Source of the DNA: an uncultured Gammaproteobacteria bacterium
GTDB taxonomy: Bacteria; Pseudomonadota; Gammaproteobacteria; DRLM01
Assembly: GCA_963729605.1 (NCBI GenBank)
Contig: CAVSNY010000005.1
Location: 87,318 to 151,317, forward strand
Direction of reading: 5' to 3'
Length of the DNA: 64,000 nt
Position numbers and translations under genes: made by a program. The notes below the pieces were generated by a model. It was not told the DNA's origin. It saw nothing but the letters and a program-made list of their open reading frames with translations, and searched no databases. Below, one piece after another: positions 4,556-30,004 of this stretch (the stretch's first letter is position 1; each line of letters opens with the position of its first letter).

Positions 4556-5510
4556 TTAGTTGGACATAGTCGTATCGGCGCGTTTTCTCTTAATGGATGA
4601 AAATATTACTGCGAACAGGATGCTCATTAACAAGCCCGCAGCAAACCCCATCGCAACAATCATTTTTCGATCCGGTTTACTTTTCGTCTCAGGCACCACC
4701 GCCCGATCGATTATGTTGAATGCATATTGATCCCGCGCGTTGGCGAGCATGATGTTTTTTGTTTGAGCCTCGATCAGTCGATAGATTGATTGCTGCATTT
4801 CCAACACGCTAGTCTTAGCTAATTGATCCTTGAGATAGGCAAGACTCTTCTCAGCCTCTGTAATCGCGGCCTGTTGCTCATGCCAGTTCAACCGCTCCAC
4901 CATGAGGTTGGCCCAGAGTGCCGCTTGCTGGGGATCCTTCCACTCGATAGCCAGAGTGATCAGTCCAGTCTTTTTGTCCTGTGTGATGGTACGGATGTTG
5001 TTATCAAAGATTTGATAGGCTTTCCGCAATGTCGGTGTATTTTTGGGATCCTCTACTAGCCATGTTTTATTCTGCGGATCCCATATGTCACTAAACAACA
5101 CTGGTAACAACTTCTCGTCCTGGATAAAGGCATCGGTAAATGCTCGCGACTTCAAAACTGCAATAACCCTGTCCACAGAATTACCACCCGAACCGATGTT
5201 AATGCCCGCTAATGAGGCGATTCCGCCCAACTCCCCTGCGAGAGCGGACAACCGGCCACCTTCTTCAGGAGAGTACTGGTGCCAAAGTAACCTCAGCACG
5301 ATAAATAGGGGGCATCCACCAGGCAATTGCCGCCGACGCGGCCGTCGTAACTAATGTTACTGCTAGAATTAGCCACTTGAACGAGACCAACACGCGCCAC
5401 AAATCCAACAAGTTGACCTCATCCTCCGCAACTGCCTCCTGCGGTTGAAGGTAGTACACCACCTGAGAGGGTTCAGCGCTCTTTGTTGGGCCTTGCTCGT
5501 TCATTTGCAT
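4556..5510 (-). pseudogene. wzz: Wzz-like polysaccharide chain-length determinant (PCP-1), split by an apparent frameshift near 5262-5275
   Basis: The N-terminal ORF 5265..5510 ends ...WWMPPIYRAEVTLAPVLS*. The +1-frame ORF 4556..5326 continues ...SPEEGGRLSALAGELGGIASLAGINIGSGG... and ends with the TM segment MGFAAGLLMSILFAVIF plus KRKR. Together they make a normal ~320-aa Wzz with N- and C-terminal TM helices. A single indel in gtactctcctgaag joins them. Confidence 0.55.
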
Positions 5511-5600
5511 ATCCAGGGTATATCTTGTCTATAACTCATAGATAATTGCATTGTAGTTCTACATCAAATCGAAGCATCGTGGACTCGAGTTTTTGCGCAA

Positions 5601-6003
5601 TCACTTCCCTATCCACAGTTGCCTCCTGTGCGCGAGAATGCGGTTGCGATAAGGCAGGAAATCCGCATGGTCGAAGACATGTCTGCGAATCAATTCGCCA
5701 TACTGCGTATCACTGCCGAGGATTCTTTTACCATACTTTAATACTTGTCCAAGCAGGGGCTCGCCGACGGCACGGATGTCCACCAAGTCGACCGGACGGC
5801 CGGTTTCCCCCGCCAATTCGGTAATCAACTGTATTTTTTCTTCCGTCGTAAGACGACGGCCCGCATCTACCGCAAGATCAAGATCGCTGTCCGCGCGTCC
5901 TTTACCTGCCGCCAATGAGCCGAACAAGATCGCCAGGCGTATTTGGGGATACGCGCTTAAGACGGCTAGCAGAGTTTGGTTTAGTTCGGTGTCGGTGGTC
6001 ATG
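5601..6003 (-). CDS. MNT-type (pol-beta superfamily) nucleotidyltransferase, solo, no HepT/HEPN partner
   Basis: Contains LFGSLAAGKGRADSDLDLAV, the GS-x9-13-DxD minimal nucleotidyltransferase motif. The likely start is MTTDTELNQ. No cognate HEPN gene on either side. Confidence 0.7.
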
Positions 6004-6093
6004 TCGTAGTAATGAATCTCGCCAAGGCGCTTCGCCCCAGGCATTGCTATGTTCCACTTCCCTGCCTCTCTCCCGAGAGGGGAAAGAACAGCA

Positions 6094-8589
6094 CTAGAGT
6101 ACACCCACGGCATTCCAGGCCGCGATGGCCAAGCCGAATTGATAGACGATCTGGCTCACGCTGGTCCATAAAGTGAGCGGACGCAAGCGTTCCACATCCA
6201 AGGGCACCACGATGGTATCGCCGGGTTTTATGTGCACTGAACTGCGCTGAAACCACTTGCTGGACTTACTCGCTATCACCGCGCCGTTGGCGCGCACCAC
6301 ATAAATGCGGTCGTCGTCGGCCTTTTTGGTCAGGCCGCCGCTGGAATTGATGTATTCATCCCGTTTAAGCCCGGCGCGGTACAGATGCGAAGTGGGATGA
6401 AACACTTCGCCAATTACCGTGACCTCTTGCGTGAAAGGCGGAACCACCAAGGTGTCACCTTCTTTTAAGACCACATCGGCTTCTGGTTTGCCCGCGACTA
6501 CGGCGGGCAGATCGATCACCAAACGGCCGGCGGCCTTGACCCGTTCCAGTTGGCTGGACAAGTCTTTCATGATTTGCAGTTCTTGTAGTTGATCGGCCTT
6601 GGTCTCCACCTGCATCTGTTGCAGGCTGAGGCTCGCCAAATCCTCCTGCAAGCGTTGCTGCAAGGTGTCCAACTGCTCCTGTTCACGCCGGCGCAGTTCT
6701 TCGCGCATGAATACCGCGCCGTCGGCGTAGGCGTAATCGGTGAGCCCGCCGGCGCGGGCGATCACGCTGCTGAGGGTTTCGCCGCGGCGAATCGGATAAG
6801 TGCCGGGAAAACGCACCTCTCCGCTGAGTTTTATTTGTCCTTGCGCCGCCCACTGCGGCACTTCCTTCACATTGAGATGATCGTGCGGATGCAGCGCCAC
6901 GTCCGCGCCGGGCTTGCCGGCCAGAGCATCACCCAAATTGATCTTTTGCAGTTGCACCTCGCGGTATTCGCCGTTGACCACGCCATAACGGGTCAACTCG
7001 GCCTCCAGGGAGTAGGCCGCCTCACCCAGTTGTCCGCCCGCCCGCAGCAAATCGCTGACGCGCATATCGGCTTCCAGCGGATATGTGCCGGGAAAACGCA
7101 CATTGCCATCTACCGTCACTACCGGTGACGGCTGTTCCAAACTCGCTTGTTGGGTAAGCTGGTCCACTAGTTCCTCGATCACCTCGCCCCGGGCTTGGGT
7201 GGCGCCGAACACCAACACTTCATCGCGCGGGGCCAACCGCACGTCGGCGGACGAGCCCGGCTGATCCAAGGCTTTGCGCAAACTGGCGGAGAACACCAGG
7301 ATGCGCCGATCCGGCTTCAGCTCGCGCTTGATCACCAGGTAATCCAAGTCGGGCTTGGGCATCAATTCGTCCGGCGAGGCGATCAAATTACTCAAGCGCA
7401 TGCCTTCCCGCCATTGATACCCGCCGGGGCGCTGCACGTGGCCGGAGAGCAAGACGACGCCTTCCATATTTTCCAATATGGAATGGACTCGTAAGACATC
7501 GCCATTTTGTACCGGCGTGGCGAGCACGGCCGGCGCGCTTAAATTCACATCCAGCAAGGTCCGTTCGCGCTGATTGTTGATCCGCTCCAATTGAGCGCCG
7601 GTCGGATACGCCGTGGAGAGCAGGCCGCCGCTGAAGGCGAGCGCCTCCCCGAGGGTCTTTTCGTGTTTCATTTCGTAAATCGCCGGACGCTTCACCTCAC
7701 CCGCTACCCCGACCGTGGCGCCGATGGGCGGGACGAAGATGACGTCGCCCGGTTGCAGGCGGGCGTCGGCGCGGGTATCGCCGCGCAACAGGAGATCGTA
7801 AAGATCCAGGCGGGTGATTATTTCGCCGTTGCGTTTGAGTTGTATGTCGCGCAGCGACCCGATGGGTTTGACGCCGCCGCTCACGAGCAAGGCATTGGTC
7901 ATGGTGGACAGGCCGCTCACCGTGTAGGAGCCGGGCTGTTGCACGTCACCCAGCACGAAGACGCGGATGGAGCGCAGCGGGCCCAGGCTGATGTTCGCCC
8001 GCACGCCGATCAATTGCTGCTCCACCCGCTGCATGAGGTTGTCTTTGAGTTCGGGGAAACGCAGTCCCGCCACCGGCACCGGCCCAATGCCGGGGAAATT
8101 CAAGGTGCCGTCGCGACCCACCGGCAGGGTGTATTCAGCGTTGTCCTTGCCGAATAATTGCACTTGCACCATGTCGCCGGGACCGACGATGTATTCGGCG
8201 GGCACCGGAATGTCGGTGGCCGGGGCAAAGGTGGTGGGGGAACCGGCGAAGAGATCGTAGCCGAATTGTTTGAGGCTCTGGCTACTCTTTTGAGTTTTTT
8301 GTTTCTCGCTGAGCGAGGACTCATCCGCCGTTTTGCTTGCCTCCTCCATGGGAGAGGTCGGCTGCGTCGTGCGCGGTTTGGTTAATTCGGGAAATGCCGG
8401 CGCGGCTTGGGTCCGGCCCGCGCCCTCCCGTTGGTTGAGCAGCTCCTGGGCCTTGGCCTGCTCCTCCGGGGACAACTGCTGGAATAGCTGGCGCTGTTCG
8501 GGGGTGAGCTCCACCGCCTGCACGGCCCATGCGAACCCGCAGGTCAGCACGACTCCCAATACGCCTTGAAAGACTTTCCTAGACTTCAA
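6094..8589 (-). CDS. large outer-membrane polysaccharide export protein (Wza/OPX family with multiple SLBB domains), signal peptide
   Basis: Signal peptide MKSRKVFQGVLGVVLTCGFAWAVQA. The Poly_export motif YIVGPGDMVQVQLFGKDNAEYTLPVGRDGTLNFPGIGPVPVAGL is followed by several repeated SLBB-like GDxLxVP units (GDVIFVPP, GDTLVVPP, GDTIVVP). Length 831 aa. Confidence 0.8.
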   Translation of the reverse strand: MKSRKVFQGVLGVVLTCGFAWAVQAVELTPEQRQLFQQLSPEEQAKAQELLNQREGAGRTQAAPAFPELTKPRTTQPTSPMEEASKTADESSLSEKQKTQKSSQSLKQFGYDLFAGSPTTFAPATDIPVPAEYIVGPGDMVQVQLFGKDNAEYTLPVGRDGTLNFPGIGPVPVAGLRFPELKDNLMQRVEQQLIGVRANISLGPLRSIRVFVLGDVQQPGSYTVSGLSTMTNALLVSGGVKPIGSLRDIQLKRNGEIITRLDLYDLLLRGDTRADARLQPGDVIFVPPIGATVGVAGEVKRPAIYEMKHEKTLGEALAFSGGLLSTAYPTGAQLERINNQRERTLLDVNLSAPAVLATPVQNGDVLRVHSILENMEGVVLLSGHVQRPGGYQWREGMRLSNLIASPDELMPKPDLDYLVIKRELKPDRRILVFSASLRKALDQPGSSADVRLAPRDEVLVFGATQARGEVIEELVDQLTQQASLEQPSPVVTVDGNVRFPGTYPLEADMRVSDLLRAGGQLGEAAYSLEAELTRYGVVNGEYREVQLQKINLGDALAGKPGADVALHPHDHLNVKEVPQWAAQGQIKLSGEVRFPGTYPIRRGETLSSVIARAGGLTDYAYADGAVFMREELRRREQEQLDTLQQRLQEDLASLSLQQMQVETKADQLQELQIMKDLSSQLERVKAAGRLVIDLPAVVAGKPEADVVLKEGDTLVVPPFTQEVTVIGEVFHPTSHLYRAGLKRDEYINSSGGLTKKADDDRIYVVRANGAVIASKSSKWFQRSSVHIKPGDTIVVPLDVERLRPLTLWTSVSQIVYQFGLAIAAWNAVGVL

Positions 8590-9754
8590 GCTGCGGAACC
8601 CCTCTGTTCATAGCCATCGTAGTCATGCCGTCAGCATCTCCTTCGCCAGTAAGGACCGAAGAAATCTACCACAATACAAGCAGATAAAATACCCGGCACG
8701 GTGATTTTTCCGATATGGCGAGTGTTGCATGGCTTCTTCCATCTGCGGGAGAAGGACATGAATGGCGCATCGGAAAATAATGCGGGCTGAATAAACGATC
8801 AGCGGAATGGACCCCCGCCGGTTCAACAAAGAGCAAACCACCCCGGCCCTGCGGGCCACCCCTCCTTGTAACAAGGAGGGGAGAACATTACAAACAACGA
8901 CCACGCACGGGGTTAGTTCGCGGTGCAGATCAAACTCCGATACCCCCCTCCCCTCCGAAGAGAGAAATATTTCGACGTCCCCGCGCGACGCTCGCACGAT
9001 CAAGCTCGACAACTCCCCTCCTCTCCGAGGAGGGGTGGCCCGCAGGGCCGGGGTGGTGCGCATCAAAATCATCCGCCCTCGAATCACTCAATACCGCCAT
9101 TGCCACTGCACATCCACGTGATTTTCCGATATGGCGGGTGAGAGAAATATTTCGACGTCCCCGCGCGACGCCTGCACGATCAAACTCCGATGACTCCCCT
9201 CCTCTCCGAGGAGGGGTGGCCCGCAGGGCCGGGGTGGTGCGCATCAAAAATCATTCGCCCTCGAATCATTCAATACCGCCATTGCTACTGCACATCCAGG
9301 TGATTTTTCCGATAGGGCAGGTGTTACATGGCCTCTTCATCTGCGGGAAAAGAGCATGAATGGCGCATCGGAAAATAATGCGGGCTGAATTAACGATCAG
9401 CGGAATGGACCCTCGCCGGTTCAACAAAGAGCAAACCACCCCGGCCCTGCGGGCCACCCCTCCTTGTAACAAGGAGGGGAGAACATTACAAACGGCGATC
9501 ACGCACGGGAGTTAATTCGCGGCGCGGATCAACTCCGATAACTCCCTGAGAATCGAAACCGGCCGCCGCGTTGTAATAGCGTTAATTCCGCGGTGCAGAT
9601 CAAACTCCGACAACTCCCCTCCGAAGAGAGGAATATTTCGACGTCACCGTGCGGCACTTGCGCGATCAAACTCCGATAACTCCCCTCCTCCCCGAGGAGG
9701 GGTGGCCCGTAGGGCCGGGGTGGTGCGCATCAAAATCATTCGCCCTCGAATCAT

Positions 9755-11213
<1,459 letters not shown>

Positions 11214-11533
11214 ACGATGGAGAACAATCCCTGGTCCTTTTGGTGAATGAGGAAACCGCTGAATTTATGTCCCGTTCCTCGTATTGGAAAATGGAGGAAA
11301 CGGGCGAAAGGCGTCAAACACGCTCTTGCCCCCGCAACCCCGCCCGGCAAGAGGGCAAAACGAAGGGGTTGGTTTAATCTTAAATTCCCCGTGACAAGCC
11401 GCGCGGACAAGGCGATAGGGGATTCTCCCCTTGAGCAGGCGCGGAGATCCGTTCCCCGTGCGCGGTCAGACCTATTTAATCCAATCCTCCGGCATTTTTC
11501 CACGAATCCCGCTTCAAGGAAACCCGCGCGGAC

Positions 11534-11612: not shown

Positions 11613-11897
11613 TCAACGAACAGGCTTGGCCTCGCCCACGGTGATCACCTCGCGGTTCATCTCGACGAGTTTCTTGCCGATGCCGCTCACCCCCGCCAAC
11701 TGATCAAGGGATTTAAACGGTCCGTGTTTCTTACGATGCTCGACGATGGCCTCCGCCTTGGCCGGCCCCACACCCTTGAGTATCTTCGCCAAGGTTTCGG
11801 CGTCGGCGGTATTGATATTCACCGAACTGCTTGCCGCCATGGCCATGGCGGCACCGCTCAACAACAAGGCAAACAGCGTTTTTTGAATAAACTTCAT
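11613..11897 (-). CDS. comEA: ComEA-family helix-hairpin-helix DNA-binding protein (periplasmic, signal peptide)
   Basis: Signal peptide MKFIQKTLFALLLSGAAMA, then NINTADAETLAKILKGVGPAKAEAIVEHRKKHGPFKSLDQLAGVSGIGKKLVE, the canonical ComEA HhH motif. Confidence 0.85.
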   Translation of the reverse strand: MKFIQKTLFALLLSGAAMAMAASSSVNINTADAETLAKILKGVGPAKAEAIVEHRKKHGPFKSLDQLAGVSGIGKKLVEMNREVITVGEAKPVR

Positions 11898-12160
11898 CCT
11901 GAGTCTCCTTCCAATTATGTATTAGGTTTTGGAAGTGTCCTTGGAGACAACCGCGCAACTTTCTATCTCCTCCCTGGCGCTAACTCGCACCGCCGTTCAG
12001 CCTAGCAGCTCGCATAAAACCCTGCAATTTATCAGTTATAAATTAGCGTGAGGAAATATTCGGATACACAAATTAATAACTCTTCTCTTTGAGGTGGACT
12101 TCGGGTGTATAGCGAATTGAGGCGACGTCCACCCAGCGCGCGCATCTCTGATGCACCCCT

Positions 12161-13060
12161 CCTTATGATAGGGGGGATAAATCCCAAATACTCCGCCGCA
12201 CACCCAACTCTGATTTCCAGGACACTCGCTCTGATCCCAGCACTCTCTCTCCGCCCCAGGACACTATCTCTCCCCCGGCTCCTGAGCAGTACCGAGGCAG
12301 ATTCCGACGAAATGTTCCTGATACCACGACACACATCATCTCCCCTCCTCTCCGAGGAGGGGTGCCCTCGCAGAGGGCGGGGTGGTGCGCTCAGGGACCG
12401 CTCATCCTCGTACCTTTCCTTCAGCCATTCCGCCGTTCACATGCGATGCCTCTTACAAAAACAAAACCACCCCGGCCCTGCGGGCCACCCCTCCTTATGA
12501 AAGGAGGGGATAAATCCCAAATACTCCGCCGAAAACACTATCGCGCCAAAACATACCGCGCAGTAACACACCGCGCCGAAACGCTGGGCCGCACGCCCAA
12601 CTCTGATTTCCAGGACACTCTCTCTGTCACAGGACACCATTCTGATCCCAGCACTCTCTCTGTCCCGGGACACCATCTCTTCCCCGGCTCCTGAGCAGTA
12701 CCGAGGCAGATTCCGACGAAATGTTCCTGATACCACGACACACATCATCTCCCCTCCTCTCCGAGGAGGGGTGCCCTCGCAGAGGGCGGGGTGGTGCGCT
12801 CAGGGACCGCTCATCCTCGTACCTTTCCTTCAGCCATTCCGCCGTTCACATGCGATGCCTCTTACAAAAACAAAACCACCCCGGCCCTGCGGGCCACCCC
12901 TCCTTATGAAAGGAGGGGATAAATCCCAAATACTCCGCCGAAAACACTACTGCGCCGGAACATACCACGCCGGAACATACCACGCCGAAACACACTGCGC
13001 CGAAACACACTGCGCCGAACACTGGGCCGCACGCCCAACTCTGCCCAGGACATCCCAAGC
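12161..13060. repeat. tandem repeat (~340-410 bp unit x ~2.5) related to the 8.6-9.8 kb array, with nested short tandem and direct repeats
   Basis: 12310-12530 is nearly identical to 12719-12940, giving identical 62-aa ORF translations. They share the cores CCCCTCCTCTCCGAGGAGGGGTG and CACCCCGGCCCTGCGGGCCACCCCTCCTTATGAAAGGAGGGG. Nested features are 15-nt tandem units (gaacataccacgccg x2, aaacacactgcgccg x2) at 12955-13015 and repeated CAGGACAC motifs. Confidence 0.85.
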
Positions 13061-13140: not shown

Positions 13141-13851
13141 TCAAAGCACCGCGATGTCGCCGACGATCGTCTGTAACGCCTGCCGGGGATCGGCGGCCTG
13201 GGTGATGGGCCGGCCGATCACCAGATAATCCGCGCCGGCACGCAAGGCTTCAACAGGCGTCATGCTGCGTTTTTGGTCATTCAAGTCCGCGCCGCCGGGG
13301 CGGATGCCCGGCGTCACCAATTGGAAGCGCGGACCGAAACGCGCCCGCAGGGAACGCGCCTCCCGCGCCGAACACACCACACCGTCCAAACCACACTGCT
13401 GCGTCAACGCGGCCAGGCGGCTGACGTTGTCTTCCACCGCGCCGGCGAGCCCCACTTCGTGCAACTCCGCTTCGTCGAGGCTGGTGAGCACCGTCACCGC
13501 GATGAGCAGCGGACGCCGCGGCATATCGTCCAACGCCGCACGCGCGGCCTGCAACATTTTACGGCCGCCCAAGGCGTGTACGTTGACCATCCACACCCCC
13601 AGCTCCGCCGCGGCCTTGACCGCCTGCGCCACGGTATTGGGGATGTCGTGAAATTTCAGATCGAGAAAGACCTCGAAACCGCCGGCCACCAATTGCCGCA
13701 CCAAGGCGGGACCGCCGCGGGTAAACAATTCCTTGCCGACTTTTAAACGGCACTGCCGGGGATCCAGCCGGCCGGCCATGGCCAAGGCCTCGGCCGGGTC
13801 CGCGTAATCCAAGGCCACGACGATGCGCGGTCCCCGCGCTGCGTTCGACAT
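13141..13851 (-). CDS. pyrF: orotidine 5'-phosphate decarboxylase
   Basis: Contains [34 protein letters not shown]...[11 protein letters not shown]...[15 protein letters not shown], the conserved OMPDC signature with DxKxxDIP. Confidence 0.9.
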
Positions 13852-13853
13852 AA

Positions 13854-15011
13854 CTACTCTCCCTCGATACCGGTGATGGGTTTGACCGTATTCCAACATT
13901 TACAACCCGGGCAATGCCAGTGCAAGGCCTTGCCCGCGAAACCGCAGCGTACACACTGGTACACCGGTTTTTCCTCCAACAATTGTTCCAGCGTCGTGCG
14001 GGCGATATCGAGTTTTTCAGCGGTGGCGGCCGCGTCGCCCGGCGCCATGTCCATGATCCGGGCCAACCCGCGCAACGACGGGCGGCGACCGAGTTGCGCG
14101 GAGAGAAAGGTCAAGGCCGCCGCTTCGCCTTGTTCCAGTCTCACCAAATCGGCGAGCGACAACAGCGCGGTCACGCCGCCGTGGCGGGACCACACGCCTT
14201 CCAGATAACCGAACAATTCCCGGTTGTCGCCGCGCGCGCGATAACACTTCACCAAGGGCGCGATGACCTCCGGCAAATACGCCGGGTCTTGCCGCTCCAC
14301 TTGTTGATAGGCGTGGATGGCCGCCTTGGCGTCGCCGGCCGCCGCGGCCAGTTCACCGCGGATCATGCTGGCGCGCGCGCAGCGTTCGTCGCTCGCCAAG
14401 GCCTTTTTGAGCAGGCGCGAGGCCAACTCGGCATCACCCTGTTCGCGCGCATGTTCGGCCTGTTCGCAATAAAACTGAGCGATCATGGGTTCCATCGCCT
14501 GCCCCGTCACCGCCTGCAAACGGCGGGCGGCCTCGACGGCCTGCTCCCATTCCTTCTCCTGCTGATAGACATCGCTCAATAAGGCCAGCGCGCGCGGCAG
14601 ATGCATATCCATCTCGATCAACTCGCGGCACAAGCCCTCGGCGCGGTCGAGCAGACCGGCGCGCATATAATCCTGGGCCAACTCCAACAGGGCTTGCGCG
14701 CGCTGGTTGCCGTTGAGGGTGGGACGCGCGATGAGATTTTGATGGATACGAATGGCCCGATCGACTTCGCCGCGCTGGCGGAATAGATTGCCCAGCGCGA
14801 GATGGATCTCCACCGTGTCGCTGTCCACTTCCAACATGCGGACGAAACATTCGATGGCCTTGTCGGGCTGTTCATTCAGAAGATAGTTGAGGCCGGTGAA
14901 ATAATCGCGCGACAAAAACGGCGGCGCCGAGTTGCGTTGAGCGCTGCGTTTGGCCAGTATCCAACCCGAGGCGGCCGCTACCGGCAGTAACAGCCATAGG
15001 ACTTCATTCAT
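13854..15011 (-). CDS. lapB: lipopolysaccharide assembly protein LapB (YciM), TPR repeats plus C-terminal rubredoxin-like Zn finger
   Basis: N-terminal TM, multiple TPR-like helices, and C-terminal [23 protein letters not shown] (CxxC...CxxC). Conserved position next to lapA and ihfB. Confidence 0.9.
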
Positions 15012-28888: not shown

Positions 28889-30004
28889 TCAAGGACGGCC
28901 GCGCATCATCGCCGCCATCTTCTCCGCATTCGGCGCGGTCACCACACCCTTTTCGGTGACGATGACGTCCACCAACCCGGCCGGCGTGACGTCGAAGGAC
29001 GGGTTCCAGGCCAGCGCCCCTTCCGCCGCCACCCGCTGGCCGCCCAGGCTCAACACCTCGTCCGGCGAGCGGTTCTCGATGTGGATCTCCGCGCCGCTCT
29101 TGATCTTCATGTCCACCGTCGAGGTGGGCGCCACCACCATGAATTTCACGCCGTGATACCGCGCCGCGACCGCCAGGTTGTAAGTGCCGATCTTATTGGC
29201 GACGTCGCCGTTGGCGGCGATGCGGTCCGAACCGACGATGGCCCAGGTCACGCCGCCCTGCTTCATCAAATGCGCGGCCGCGCCGTCGGCGATCAGGGTG
29301 ACCGGGATCTCGTCCTGCACCAGCTCCCAAGCGGTGAGCCGCGCGCCCTGCAGCCAGGGGCGGGTTTCGTCGGCGTAAACGCGTTCGATCTTGCCCGCGG
29401 CGTAAGCCGAACGAATCACCCCGAGGGCCGTGCCGTAACCGCCGGTGGCCAGCGAACCGGTATTGCAATGGGTCAACACCAGGCCACGGCTTTGAATACA
29501 GGCCGCGCCCAATTCGCCCATGCGGCGGTTGGCGGCGATGTCTTCCTCGTGAATCCGGCGGGCCTCGGCCAGCAGGGCCGGCACGGGGTCGCCGCTTGCG
29601 GCGGGGCTGTTTCCGCTGGAAAGACCCTCTCCCGCTTGCGGGAGAGGGTGAATAGCGTGGATTGAATTGATCTTGGCGCGCATCCGTTCCAGCGCCCAGA
29701 ACAGATTGACCGCCGTGGGCCGGGAGTCGGCGAGACGTTGCAGATCCTGTTCGATATCCTGCCGCCAGGTCGCCGCCGAACGGGCATACCGCGCGCGCGC
29801 CGCCAGCACCACCCCGTAGGCCGCCGTCACCCCGATGGCAGGCGCGCCGCGCACCACCATATCGCGTATGGCCGCCGCCACCCCGGCGGCGTCTTCCAGC
29901 AATACTTGCTCGTGACGCAACGGCAAGACCCGCTGGTCGAGCAATTTCAAACCCTGTTCCGTCCATTCCACCGCCCGGATGGAATCGTGGCGCGTCTCTG
30001 TCAT
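28889..30004 (-). CDS. mtnA: S-methyl-5-thioribose-1-phosphate isomerase
   Basis: eIF-2B-like family: [17 protein letters not shown]...[14 protein letters not shown]...[18 protein letters not shown]. The start is set at MTETRH (ATG at 30004). Confidence 0.85.

Follow-up and report, generated by a model that had tools for sequence, protein, structure and literature searches.

The window analysed here is a stretch of 64,000 nucleotides (nt) of contig CAVSNY010000005.1 (assembly GCA_963729605.1), from an uncultured Gammaproteobacteria bacterium. It carries a row of genes all read on the minus strand, comprising a Wza-like exporter (6094-8589), wzi (9755-11503), a comEA-like gene, pyrF and lapB (13854-15011). 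The spacer of ~1.2 kb between the stop of pyrF and the start of comEA, both read on the minus strand, is occupied by a repeat array, here called block B, and a related array, block A, lies in the 8.6-9.8 kb region. A first-pass annotation made from the letters of the DNA had described block B as 2.5 copies of a ~340-410 bp unit in the comEA promoter region, and had suggested that it contained iterons bound by a protein, or a structured RNA. The analysis presented here indicates that block B is neither an array of regulatory iterons nor a gene for an RNA, but probably a cluster of palindromic repeats, non-coding and non-autonomous, that has been amplified locally. Comparison loci retrieved for the analysis are designated by L numbers (L001, L118, etc.).

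Block B contains two and a half units of ~410 bp, with a spacing of 409 nt and a partial third unit at 12154-12244 (Table 1); the value of 340 bp does not correspond to any separate period. The segments 12310-12530 and 12719-12940, which had been reported as near-identical, are contained in two 300-nt direct repeats with 98% identity, and the 15-nt micro-tandems noticed in the 3' flank were recovered as a 15-nt period of 5.5 copies. In the window, CAGGACAC is found in 4 copies in block B and in 2 elsewhere, and the 15-mer CGGCGYRGTRTGTTY (minus strand, up to 2 mismatches) in 6 copies in block B and in 1 elsewhere. Neither the 15-nt nor the 19-nt motif has a match in any comparison locus, and a BLAST comparison with all these loci likewise gave no match for the 241-nt linker, the 78-nt filler or the interior portions of block A. 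Five open reading frames (ORFs) of 100-131 amino acids (aa) within block B gave no match in Pfam, in agreement with its description as non-coding, and no rep or regulator gene adjoins the block according to Pfam searches of the window ORFs. As regards its location, the spacer does lie upstream of comEA, although the promoter-proximal ~110 nt are outside the repeats.

Table 1. Features of the pyrF-comEA spacer and of block A, and micro-tandems abutting modules in other loci (positions in the window unless a locus is given).
Feature	Position	Strand	Details
comEA-like helix-hairpin-helix gene	11613..11897	-	94 aa; Pfam
comEA-proximal leader/promoter region	11898..12010	-	Outside the repeats; sole spacer sequence common to relative L118
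Repeat block B	12154..13043	-	2.5 tandem 409-nt units, most of the pyrF-comEA spacer
Degenerate module remnant CACCCCTCCTTATGATAGGGGGG	12154..12176	-	First hairpin only; family D6
19-nt micro-tandem	12217..12270	+	2.8 copies (Tandem Repeats Finder)
Direct repeat copy 1	12245..12544		300 nt; family D1
Triplex-type module CCCCTCCTC-tcc-GAGGAGGGG, TG, mini-hairpin CCCTC-gca-GAGGG, C, GGGGTGGTG	12342..12390	+	DNA folding
168-nt doublet	12342..12509	-	Module, 78-nt filler, inverted module; third blocks facing inward
Triplex-type module CCCCTCCTT-tcat-AAGGAGGGG, TG, GCCC-gca-GGGC, C, GGGGTGGTT	12466..12509	-	Motif search and DNA folding
15-nt micro-tandem	12524..12582	-	3-4 more diverged copies; family D2
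19-nt micro-tandem CCAGGACACTCTCTCTGTC	12610..12684	+	4.1 copies (Tandem Repeats Finder)
Direct repeat copy 2	12654..12953		98% identity to copy 1, spacing 409; family D1
Module, second copy of 12342-12390	12751..12799	+	Motif search
168-nt doublet, second copy	12751..12918	-	Repeat comparison
Module, second copy of 12466-12509	12875..12918	-	Motif search
15-nt micro-tandem, CGGCGYRGTRTGTTY on minus strand	12936..13019	-	5.5 copies (Tandem Repeats Finder); abuts outer side of module 12875-12918
26-nt unit-boundary repeat AACACTGGGCCGCACGCCCAACTCTG	13018..13043		Further copies at 12580-12605 and 12187-12212; family D8
pyrF	13141..13851	-	236 aa, instead of the 252-aa ORF
Repeat block A	8837..9727		Five modules: 8838-8881 (-), 9015-9056 (+), 9196-9237 (+), 9436-9479 (-), 9682-9723 (+)
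Abutting micro-tandem	L164 3420-3470		9 nt GCTCATTCA, 5 copies
Abutting micro-tandem	L036 6268-6358		14 nt AACGCGGTTACGGC, 6.6 copies; Hymenobacteraceae
Abutting micro-tandem	L081 5366-5445		9 nt GACCCAACA, 8.9 copies; Binatia

The element that recurs in both blocks is a module of ~45 nt with the organisation CCCCTCCT(C/T)-loop-(G/A)AGGAGGGG, TG, a mini-hairpin, C and GGGGTGGT(G/T), whose ends are CCCCTCC and GGGGTGG. Nine modules were found in the window, all of them within blocks A and B. The 25-nt core GGGGTGGCCCGCAGGGCCGGGGTGG (up to 3 mismatches) appears 7 times and the pattern CCCCTCCT-N4-8-AGGAGGGG 9 times in the 64 kb, with 0 expected in shuffled sequences. All the core copies fall in 8.8-9.7 kb or 12.3-12.9 kb, which bears out the earlier view that the two arrays share their cores and form one family with two local variants. 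The loop of the first hairpin has 3-4 nt in the modules of block B and in three of those of block A, the other two combining a 3-nt loop with a 10-bp stem. The second loop, of 14-16 nt, itself holds a hairpin of 4-6 bp, mostly with a GNA triloop. Folding tools, which model Watson-Crick pairs only, predict for the single-stranded module two adjacent hairpins with the third block left free. In the window, this third block, GGGGTGGT(G/T), mirrors the purine arm (G/A)AGGAGGGG at 9 of 9 positions.

Both the mini-hairpin and the mirror relationship hold well beyond the window. Amongst 114 distinct spacers running from GGGGTG to GGGGTGG, a perfect stem of at least 4 bp is present in 66%, against 5% of shuffles, with 30 stem types and a G-N-A triloop in 45 of 75 loops. 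When 42 distinct 25-mers were compared, 93.5% of the cells were paired (67.8% in shuffles, none of the 500 shuffles equalling the observed value), and 37 double changes were counted, with compensatory change at all four pairs, a pattern that collapses in slid controls. Judging from this covariation, the mini-hairpin is conserved as a structure rather than as a sequence. The mirror block is located downstream of ~90% of such hairpins (79/179 and 188/412 per strand, the maximum being 50%) and upstream of just 6-8% of them. It repeats the purine arm in mirror order, with T taking the place of A. At position 8, A is accompanied by T in 95 of 96 cases and G by G in 3 of 3; at position 9, A leads to T in 27 of 29 cases, versus 1 of 42 for G to T. 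In the Hymenobacteraceae, the arm and the mirror block are altered jointly, GGGGAGGGG being found with GGGGTGGGG.

By its sequence design, the module is one of the intrastrand purine-motif triplex repeats described as BoxC, PIT or TMECO. The TMECO pattern, CCCTCNCCC N3-6 GGGNGAGGG N3 GGGNGAGGG (Holder et al. 2015, PMC4666352), is present in 23 copies in E. coli MG1655, all of them intergenic, five inverted pairs always combine a type A with a type B motif, and the loci are rearranged between strains (PMC4666352). Earlier work on BoxC and PIT elements (Bergler 1992; Hoyne/Maher 2000) is cited in the same paper. The window modules share with these repeats the succession of a C-rich arm, a loop, a G-rich arm, a second loop and a mirror G-rich block, as well as intergenic location, multiple copies, inverted pairs of two subtypes, strain-rearranged loci and wide taxonomic spread. 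However, their arms are CCCCTCCT/AGGAGGGG instead of CCCTCNCCC/GGGNGAGGG, the TMECO consensus does not fit them, and their second loop, of 14-16 nt (up to ~30 elsewhere), is a covarying mini-hairpin, whereas that of TMECO has 3 nt. Since the ITxF search accepted loops of 1-6 nt (PMC4666352), the window variant would escape its listing. Thus, what is new here is the long hairpin second loop and the different arms, the kind of triplex repeat being already known.

The stable folds obtained on both strands could also mean that the units are transcribed and act as RNA, either as a small RNA, as a leader structure of comEA, as a terminator of pyrF or as a REP-like stabiliser of mRNA, and it is true that block B lies inside a co-directional gene row and that the minus-strand modules 12466-12509 and 12875-12918 are followed by TTTTGTTTTTG and were flagged as terminator-like by a scan. 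However, the T run begins 7 nt past the mini-hairpin, and the number of terminator-like sites (8) does not exceed what shuffles lead one to expect (5.7 +/- 3.0). Rfam gave no gathering-score match in the window, nor anything relevant even with E up to 5, the best sub-threshold hit being a plant microRNA model with 27.6 bits against a threshold of 137. Moreover, modules are seen in both orientations relative to genes, and the GNA triloops together with the mirror third block point to a structure at the level of single-stranded DNA; PMC4666352 cites work according to which RNA does not form triplexes of the purine-motif kind and PIT elements were devoid of promoter or terminator activity. An RNA function is considered unlikely. 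The structured elements announced by the first-pass annotation are therefore retained as hairpin stems kept by compensatory change, but not as a structured RNA gene.

Relatives of the host reveal how recent and variable the array is. Contigs L001-L003, whose ComEA is identical, present the same doublet upstream of comEA with a different number of 19-nt copies, and end inside a module; contigs with a 99% identical PyrF end 110 nt past pyrF, where the micro-tandem zone begins, so every close-strain contig breaks within repeats. In a more distant relative, L118 (GCA_947259075.1; PyrF 81%), pyrF and comEA are separated by 282 nt devoid of any module, and the sequence in common with the window spacer is restricted to ~110 nt beside comEA. 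Taking this short spacer into account, ~950 nt of the window spacer are added or amplified repeat DNA. Doublet identity between strains (94.6-96.3%) is similar to that of the flanks, while the copies in the window reach 98%, and therefore the duplication of the unit (or its conversion) is younger than the split of the strains. A 33-mer specific to the unit had no matches in the JGI metagenomes.

These comparisons bear directly on the idea that the spaced 15- and 19-nt repeats are iteron-like sites for a regulator, or for a replication initiator, governing comEA or read-through from pyrF. The motifs are indeed short tandem direct repeats, regularly spaced and enriched in block B, as plasmid or phage iterons are, and on the coding strand of comEA the block immediately precedes this gene. 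However, L118 lacks block B while keeping the comEA-proximal sequence, the 19-nt copy number drifts among strains with identical ComEA, and neither motif is matched in other loci. Iterons are 17-22 bp tandems placed beside an initiator gene or an origin and conserved in relatives, and block B has neither this context nor this conservation. In addition, micro-tandems of unrelated sequence abut modules in distant phyla, in parallel to the 15-nt array at 12936-13019 (Table 1), and for this reason those of block B look like a by-product of the modules. The iteron proposal was consequently abandoned as very unlikely. Under the interpretation of block B as an amplified cluster of palindromic repeats, the tandem units would have arisen by unequal recombination or replication slippage between modules, and the 15- and 19-nt micro-tandems would be by-products of replication or repair trouble beside a stable non-B DNA structure; comparable instability has been reported beside the non-B structures of TMECO loci (PMC4666352). 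If pyrF termination or comEA expression is affected at all, this would be incidental.

Among the matches listed from species-representative genomes, more than 109 stretches contain the exact core GGGGTGGCCCGCAGGGCCGGGGTGG. Its hosts include Candidatus Binatia, Beta- and Gammaproteobacteria, Hymenobacteraceae and other Bacteroidota, Candidatus Adiutrix, Bacillota and Capsulimonas, amongst others, and in complete chromosomes of Candidatus Binatia it forms tandem arrays of ~117 nt. In the matches listed, the first hairpin always precedes the core. Most adjacent modules are inverted, with 20-40 nt between them and either order being seen, and the arrays thus alternate. Module neighbours are ordinary metabolic or housekeeping genes, as indicated by ORF clustering and by Pfam searches of 138 neighbouring ORFs, amongst which no transposase family recurs. 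The exact core gave 0 matches in the IMG/VR viral contigs, and thus there is no sign of a phage vector. A full-text literature search for the core strings returned no relevant paper.

The doublets of the window fold as a long hairpin well beyond shuffles (z -4.9 to -6.5), in the manner of a REPIN. The possibility was thus considered of an ordinary cluster of repetitive extragenic palindromes (REP), arranged as bacterial interspersed mosaic elements (BIME) or as REPINs and mobilised by a RAYT (Y1) transposase. Like these, the modules are short extragenic palindromes (40-50 nt) that form inverted pairs of two subtypes and arrays of alternating orientation; the likeness extends to the existence of one protein gene flanked by repeats that are also scattered elsewhere without the gene. 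However, the modules bear no GTAG/CGTC end tag and their strings are absent from the REP survey PMC3733652. Their recurrent neighbour is not a transposase but a DUF559 protein, a Vsr-like PD-(D/E)XK nuclease, whereas RAYT is a Y1 HUH transposase. Furthermore, the exact core crosses several phyla, while REPIN-RAYT systems are mostly inherited vertically, according to 10.1101/2022.05.22.493013. We regard a RAYT-driven origin as highly improbable, and the repeats continue to be treated as triplex-type modules.

DUF559 is the only recurrent gene of selfish appearance in the loci selected by modules (Binatia and one Hymenobacteraceae genome). It is also found in L116 (GCA_023266095.1), the nearest named genome, which was retrieved through its PyrF and not through a module: a DUF559 gene surrounded by four modules is found there, 2.4 kb downstream of pyrF. 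The proteins bracketed by modules are members of PF04480 (E about 1e-31), matching PDB 3HRL at 3e-28 and, weakly (1.5e-4), the catalytic domain of the homing endonuclease I-Bth0305I (3R3P). They resemble the EDxHD/Vsr-like homing endonucleases as well as the DUF559 proteins represented by 3HRL and by YcjD of E. coli. Known EDxHD enzymes are encoded in group I introns or between split inteins, and their cleavage target is a gene, whereas the DUF559 genes described here are free-standing between hairpin modules.

The association was quantified in 80 metagenome loci chosen solely by two peptide patterns of the DUF559 catalytic core. The density of the three-block motif is 3.53/kb within 300 nt of the DUF559 gene and 0.19/kb beyond, a difference of ~18-fold. 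The nearest upstream motif is in '+' orientation in 44/47 loci (median distance, 68 nt) and the nearest downstream one in '-' orientation in 46/51 (median, 22 nt), so the motifs have a fixed orientation, in which their third blocks point towards the gene. The pattern persists across genomes of 33-70% G+C, the same arm is present on both flanks in 31 of 44 loci (16.6 +/- 1.9 expected), and the arm type shifts with DUF559 divergence. Thus, the cassette can be described as a module, ~70 nt, the DUF559 gene, ~20 nt and an inverted module. Amongst cultured bacteria, the same pattern is shown by Deinococcus proteolyticus, with an inverted repeat of ~52 nt around the gene, Azospirillum, Picosynechococcus and Neisseria gonorrhoeae. 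DUF559 genes bracketed by repeats of this kind are thus spread over many bacterial phyla. In E. coli MG1655, ycjD (1351407-1351760) also fits it, a degenerate motif overlapping its last codons, and the published TMECO #9 (1351204-1351239) sits 165 nt downstream of its stop. The 2015 TMECO survey found no transposase, integrase or other mobility-related gene near the motifs (PMC4666352), whereas in the present analysis DUF559 genes are bracketed by them. No paper linking DUF559 with triplex-type motifs was found in the library searched, by queries directed at the one or the other.

Some of these loci display further rearrangements. The near-identical DUF559 loci L122, L123/L124 and L136, from a soil metagenome, have 2, 3 and 4 upstream modules with a period of 53-106 nt, and therefore vary in the copy number of the module array beside the gene. 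In L133 and L119, the DUF559 gene lies between direct repeats of a ~105-nt unit, each of them an inverted module pair, so exchange between units would delete or duplicate the gene. The stretch between ycjD and TMECO #9 (L204; 1351240-1351420 of E. coli MG1655) contains an incomplete second copy of the ~70 nt that end ycjD, along with a degenerate motif, an arrangement that resembles the wzi-end duplications of block A.

In block A itself, the final ~59 nt of wzi, including the stop, are present three times (9058-9116, 9239-9298 and 9728-9783; family D3), and a ~240-nt region upstream of the Wza-like gene twice (8700-8911 and 9299-9509). In the strain contig L002, the wzi end and the Wza-upstream region are each single, with no modules, and exactly the 891 nt of block A (8837-9727) are missing, the edges being module ends. 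The wzi-end copies, together with the ORFs of 100-131 aa that traverse block B, could be taken to mean that the units are what is left of a protein-coding gene that was duplicated and then decayed. However, the five ORFs tested had no Pfam match, linkers and filler match nothing, and what is conserved is not codons but hairpins, in which changes compensate each other, so this origin is scarcely credible. The sharp presence/absence polymorphism at repeat ends, the terminal inverted repeats of ~45 nt and the lack of coding capacity are reminiscent of miniature inverted-repeat transposable elements (MITEs), but there is neither a clear target-site duplication nor a parent insertion sequence with a DDE transposase, and the gene-carrying counterpart of the modules is the DUF559 cassette, of ~0.5 kb. 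A reading of block A as a MITE with outward GGGGTGG ends was also dropped, as cassette statistics show the opposite polarity and arrays merely alternate.

The doublet of the window has the two-module layout of the DUF559 cassette, with the third blocks facing inward and 78 nt in place of the PF04480 ORF; given this filler and the lack of a DUF559 gene in the window, it was filed as a gene-less derivative. The module family may be spread or maintained by a module-recognising DUF559 (Vsr-like) nuclease acting in trans from elsewhere in the genome. As to the binding of a protein that had been predicted for block B, the modules may well be recognised by one, for which such a putative nuclease is a better candidate than an iteron-binding initiator. 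In a wider and more tentative proposal, to which we give somewhat less than even weight, DUF559 nucleases (YcjD-type, Vsr-like) and triplex-type modules would constitute a bacteria-wide selfish system, so far unrecognised and similar to RAYT/REPIN. In this system, a nuclease encoded between inverted modules would recognise the folded module and drive its copying or homing, and gene-less doublets and arrays, such as those of the window and the BoxC/TMECO motifs of E. coli, would be its non-autonomous progeny. If true, this would account for the instability of such loci.

Several points weigh against the interpretation proposed for block B and its link to DUF559. No DUF559 ORF exists within the 64-kb window, and neither the linkers nor the 78-nt filler resemble any DUF559 cassette, so an origin of the doublet through deletion within such a cassette is at best putative. 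In Binatia, the nearest detected modules flank the DUF559 gene in the opposite order. Just nine copies, in two clusters, are visible in the window, a high copy number in the genome being assumed. The target-site signature at the block A junction, where the window and L002 overlap in just 2 nt (CA) while the inverted repeats themselves are clear, is ambiguous. The long-loop variant was assigned to the triplex type from its sequence design, its triplex formation being putative, and the action of a DUF559 nuclease on the modules is something that we infer.

BoxC, PIT and TM motifs have been known since the 1990s as conserved and abundant elements tied to genome instability, and we know of no origin, spreading mechanism or partner protein for them. 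DUF559 is a very large family of nucleases with a solved structure and, to our knowledge, without a known function. If the adjacency described here reflects recognition, the questions of where the motifs come from and what DUF559 does both become directly testable. Block B itself is probably ordinary and neutral at the local level, its main value being to have led to the association between DUF559 and triplex motifs. From a practical point of view, short-read assemblies break at this 1.2-kb spacer, which is mostly recent and unstable repeat DNA and should therefore not be read as comEA regulatory sequence.

Other features were noted. An XerC-arm-like sequence (GGTGCGCAT) beside some modules, a mimicry of Shine-Dalgarno or anti-Shine-Dalgarno sequences by the first hairpin, G-quadruplex potential and a resemblance to Chi or KOPS were set aside, being lineage-specific or more readily accounted for by the mirror rule. 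At 12093-12133, in the interval that separates the repeats from the promoter-proximal region of comEA, GGTGGACTTCG ... CGACGTCCACC form an inverted repeat of 11 bp around a loop of 19 nt; strains L002 and L003 have it in perfect form, and L118 lacks it. A lone hairpin with arms of the classical BoxC/TMECO type, CCCTCTCCC-gcttgc-GGGAGAGGG, is located at 29625-29648, with no mirror third block on either side. In the strain contigs L001 and L002, a nucleotidyltransferase/HepT-like toxin-antitoxin pair is found just past the Wza-like gene (5476-6320). Finally, two classical short-loop motifs, CCCTCACCCCAGCCCTCTCCC-gga-GGGAGAGGG, are present downstream of comEA in L118 (7650-7870), and therefore related genomes host different motif subfamilies.

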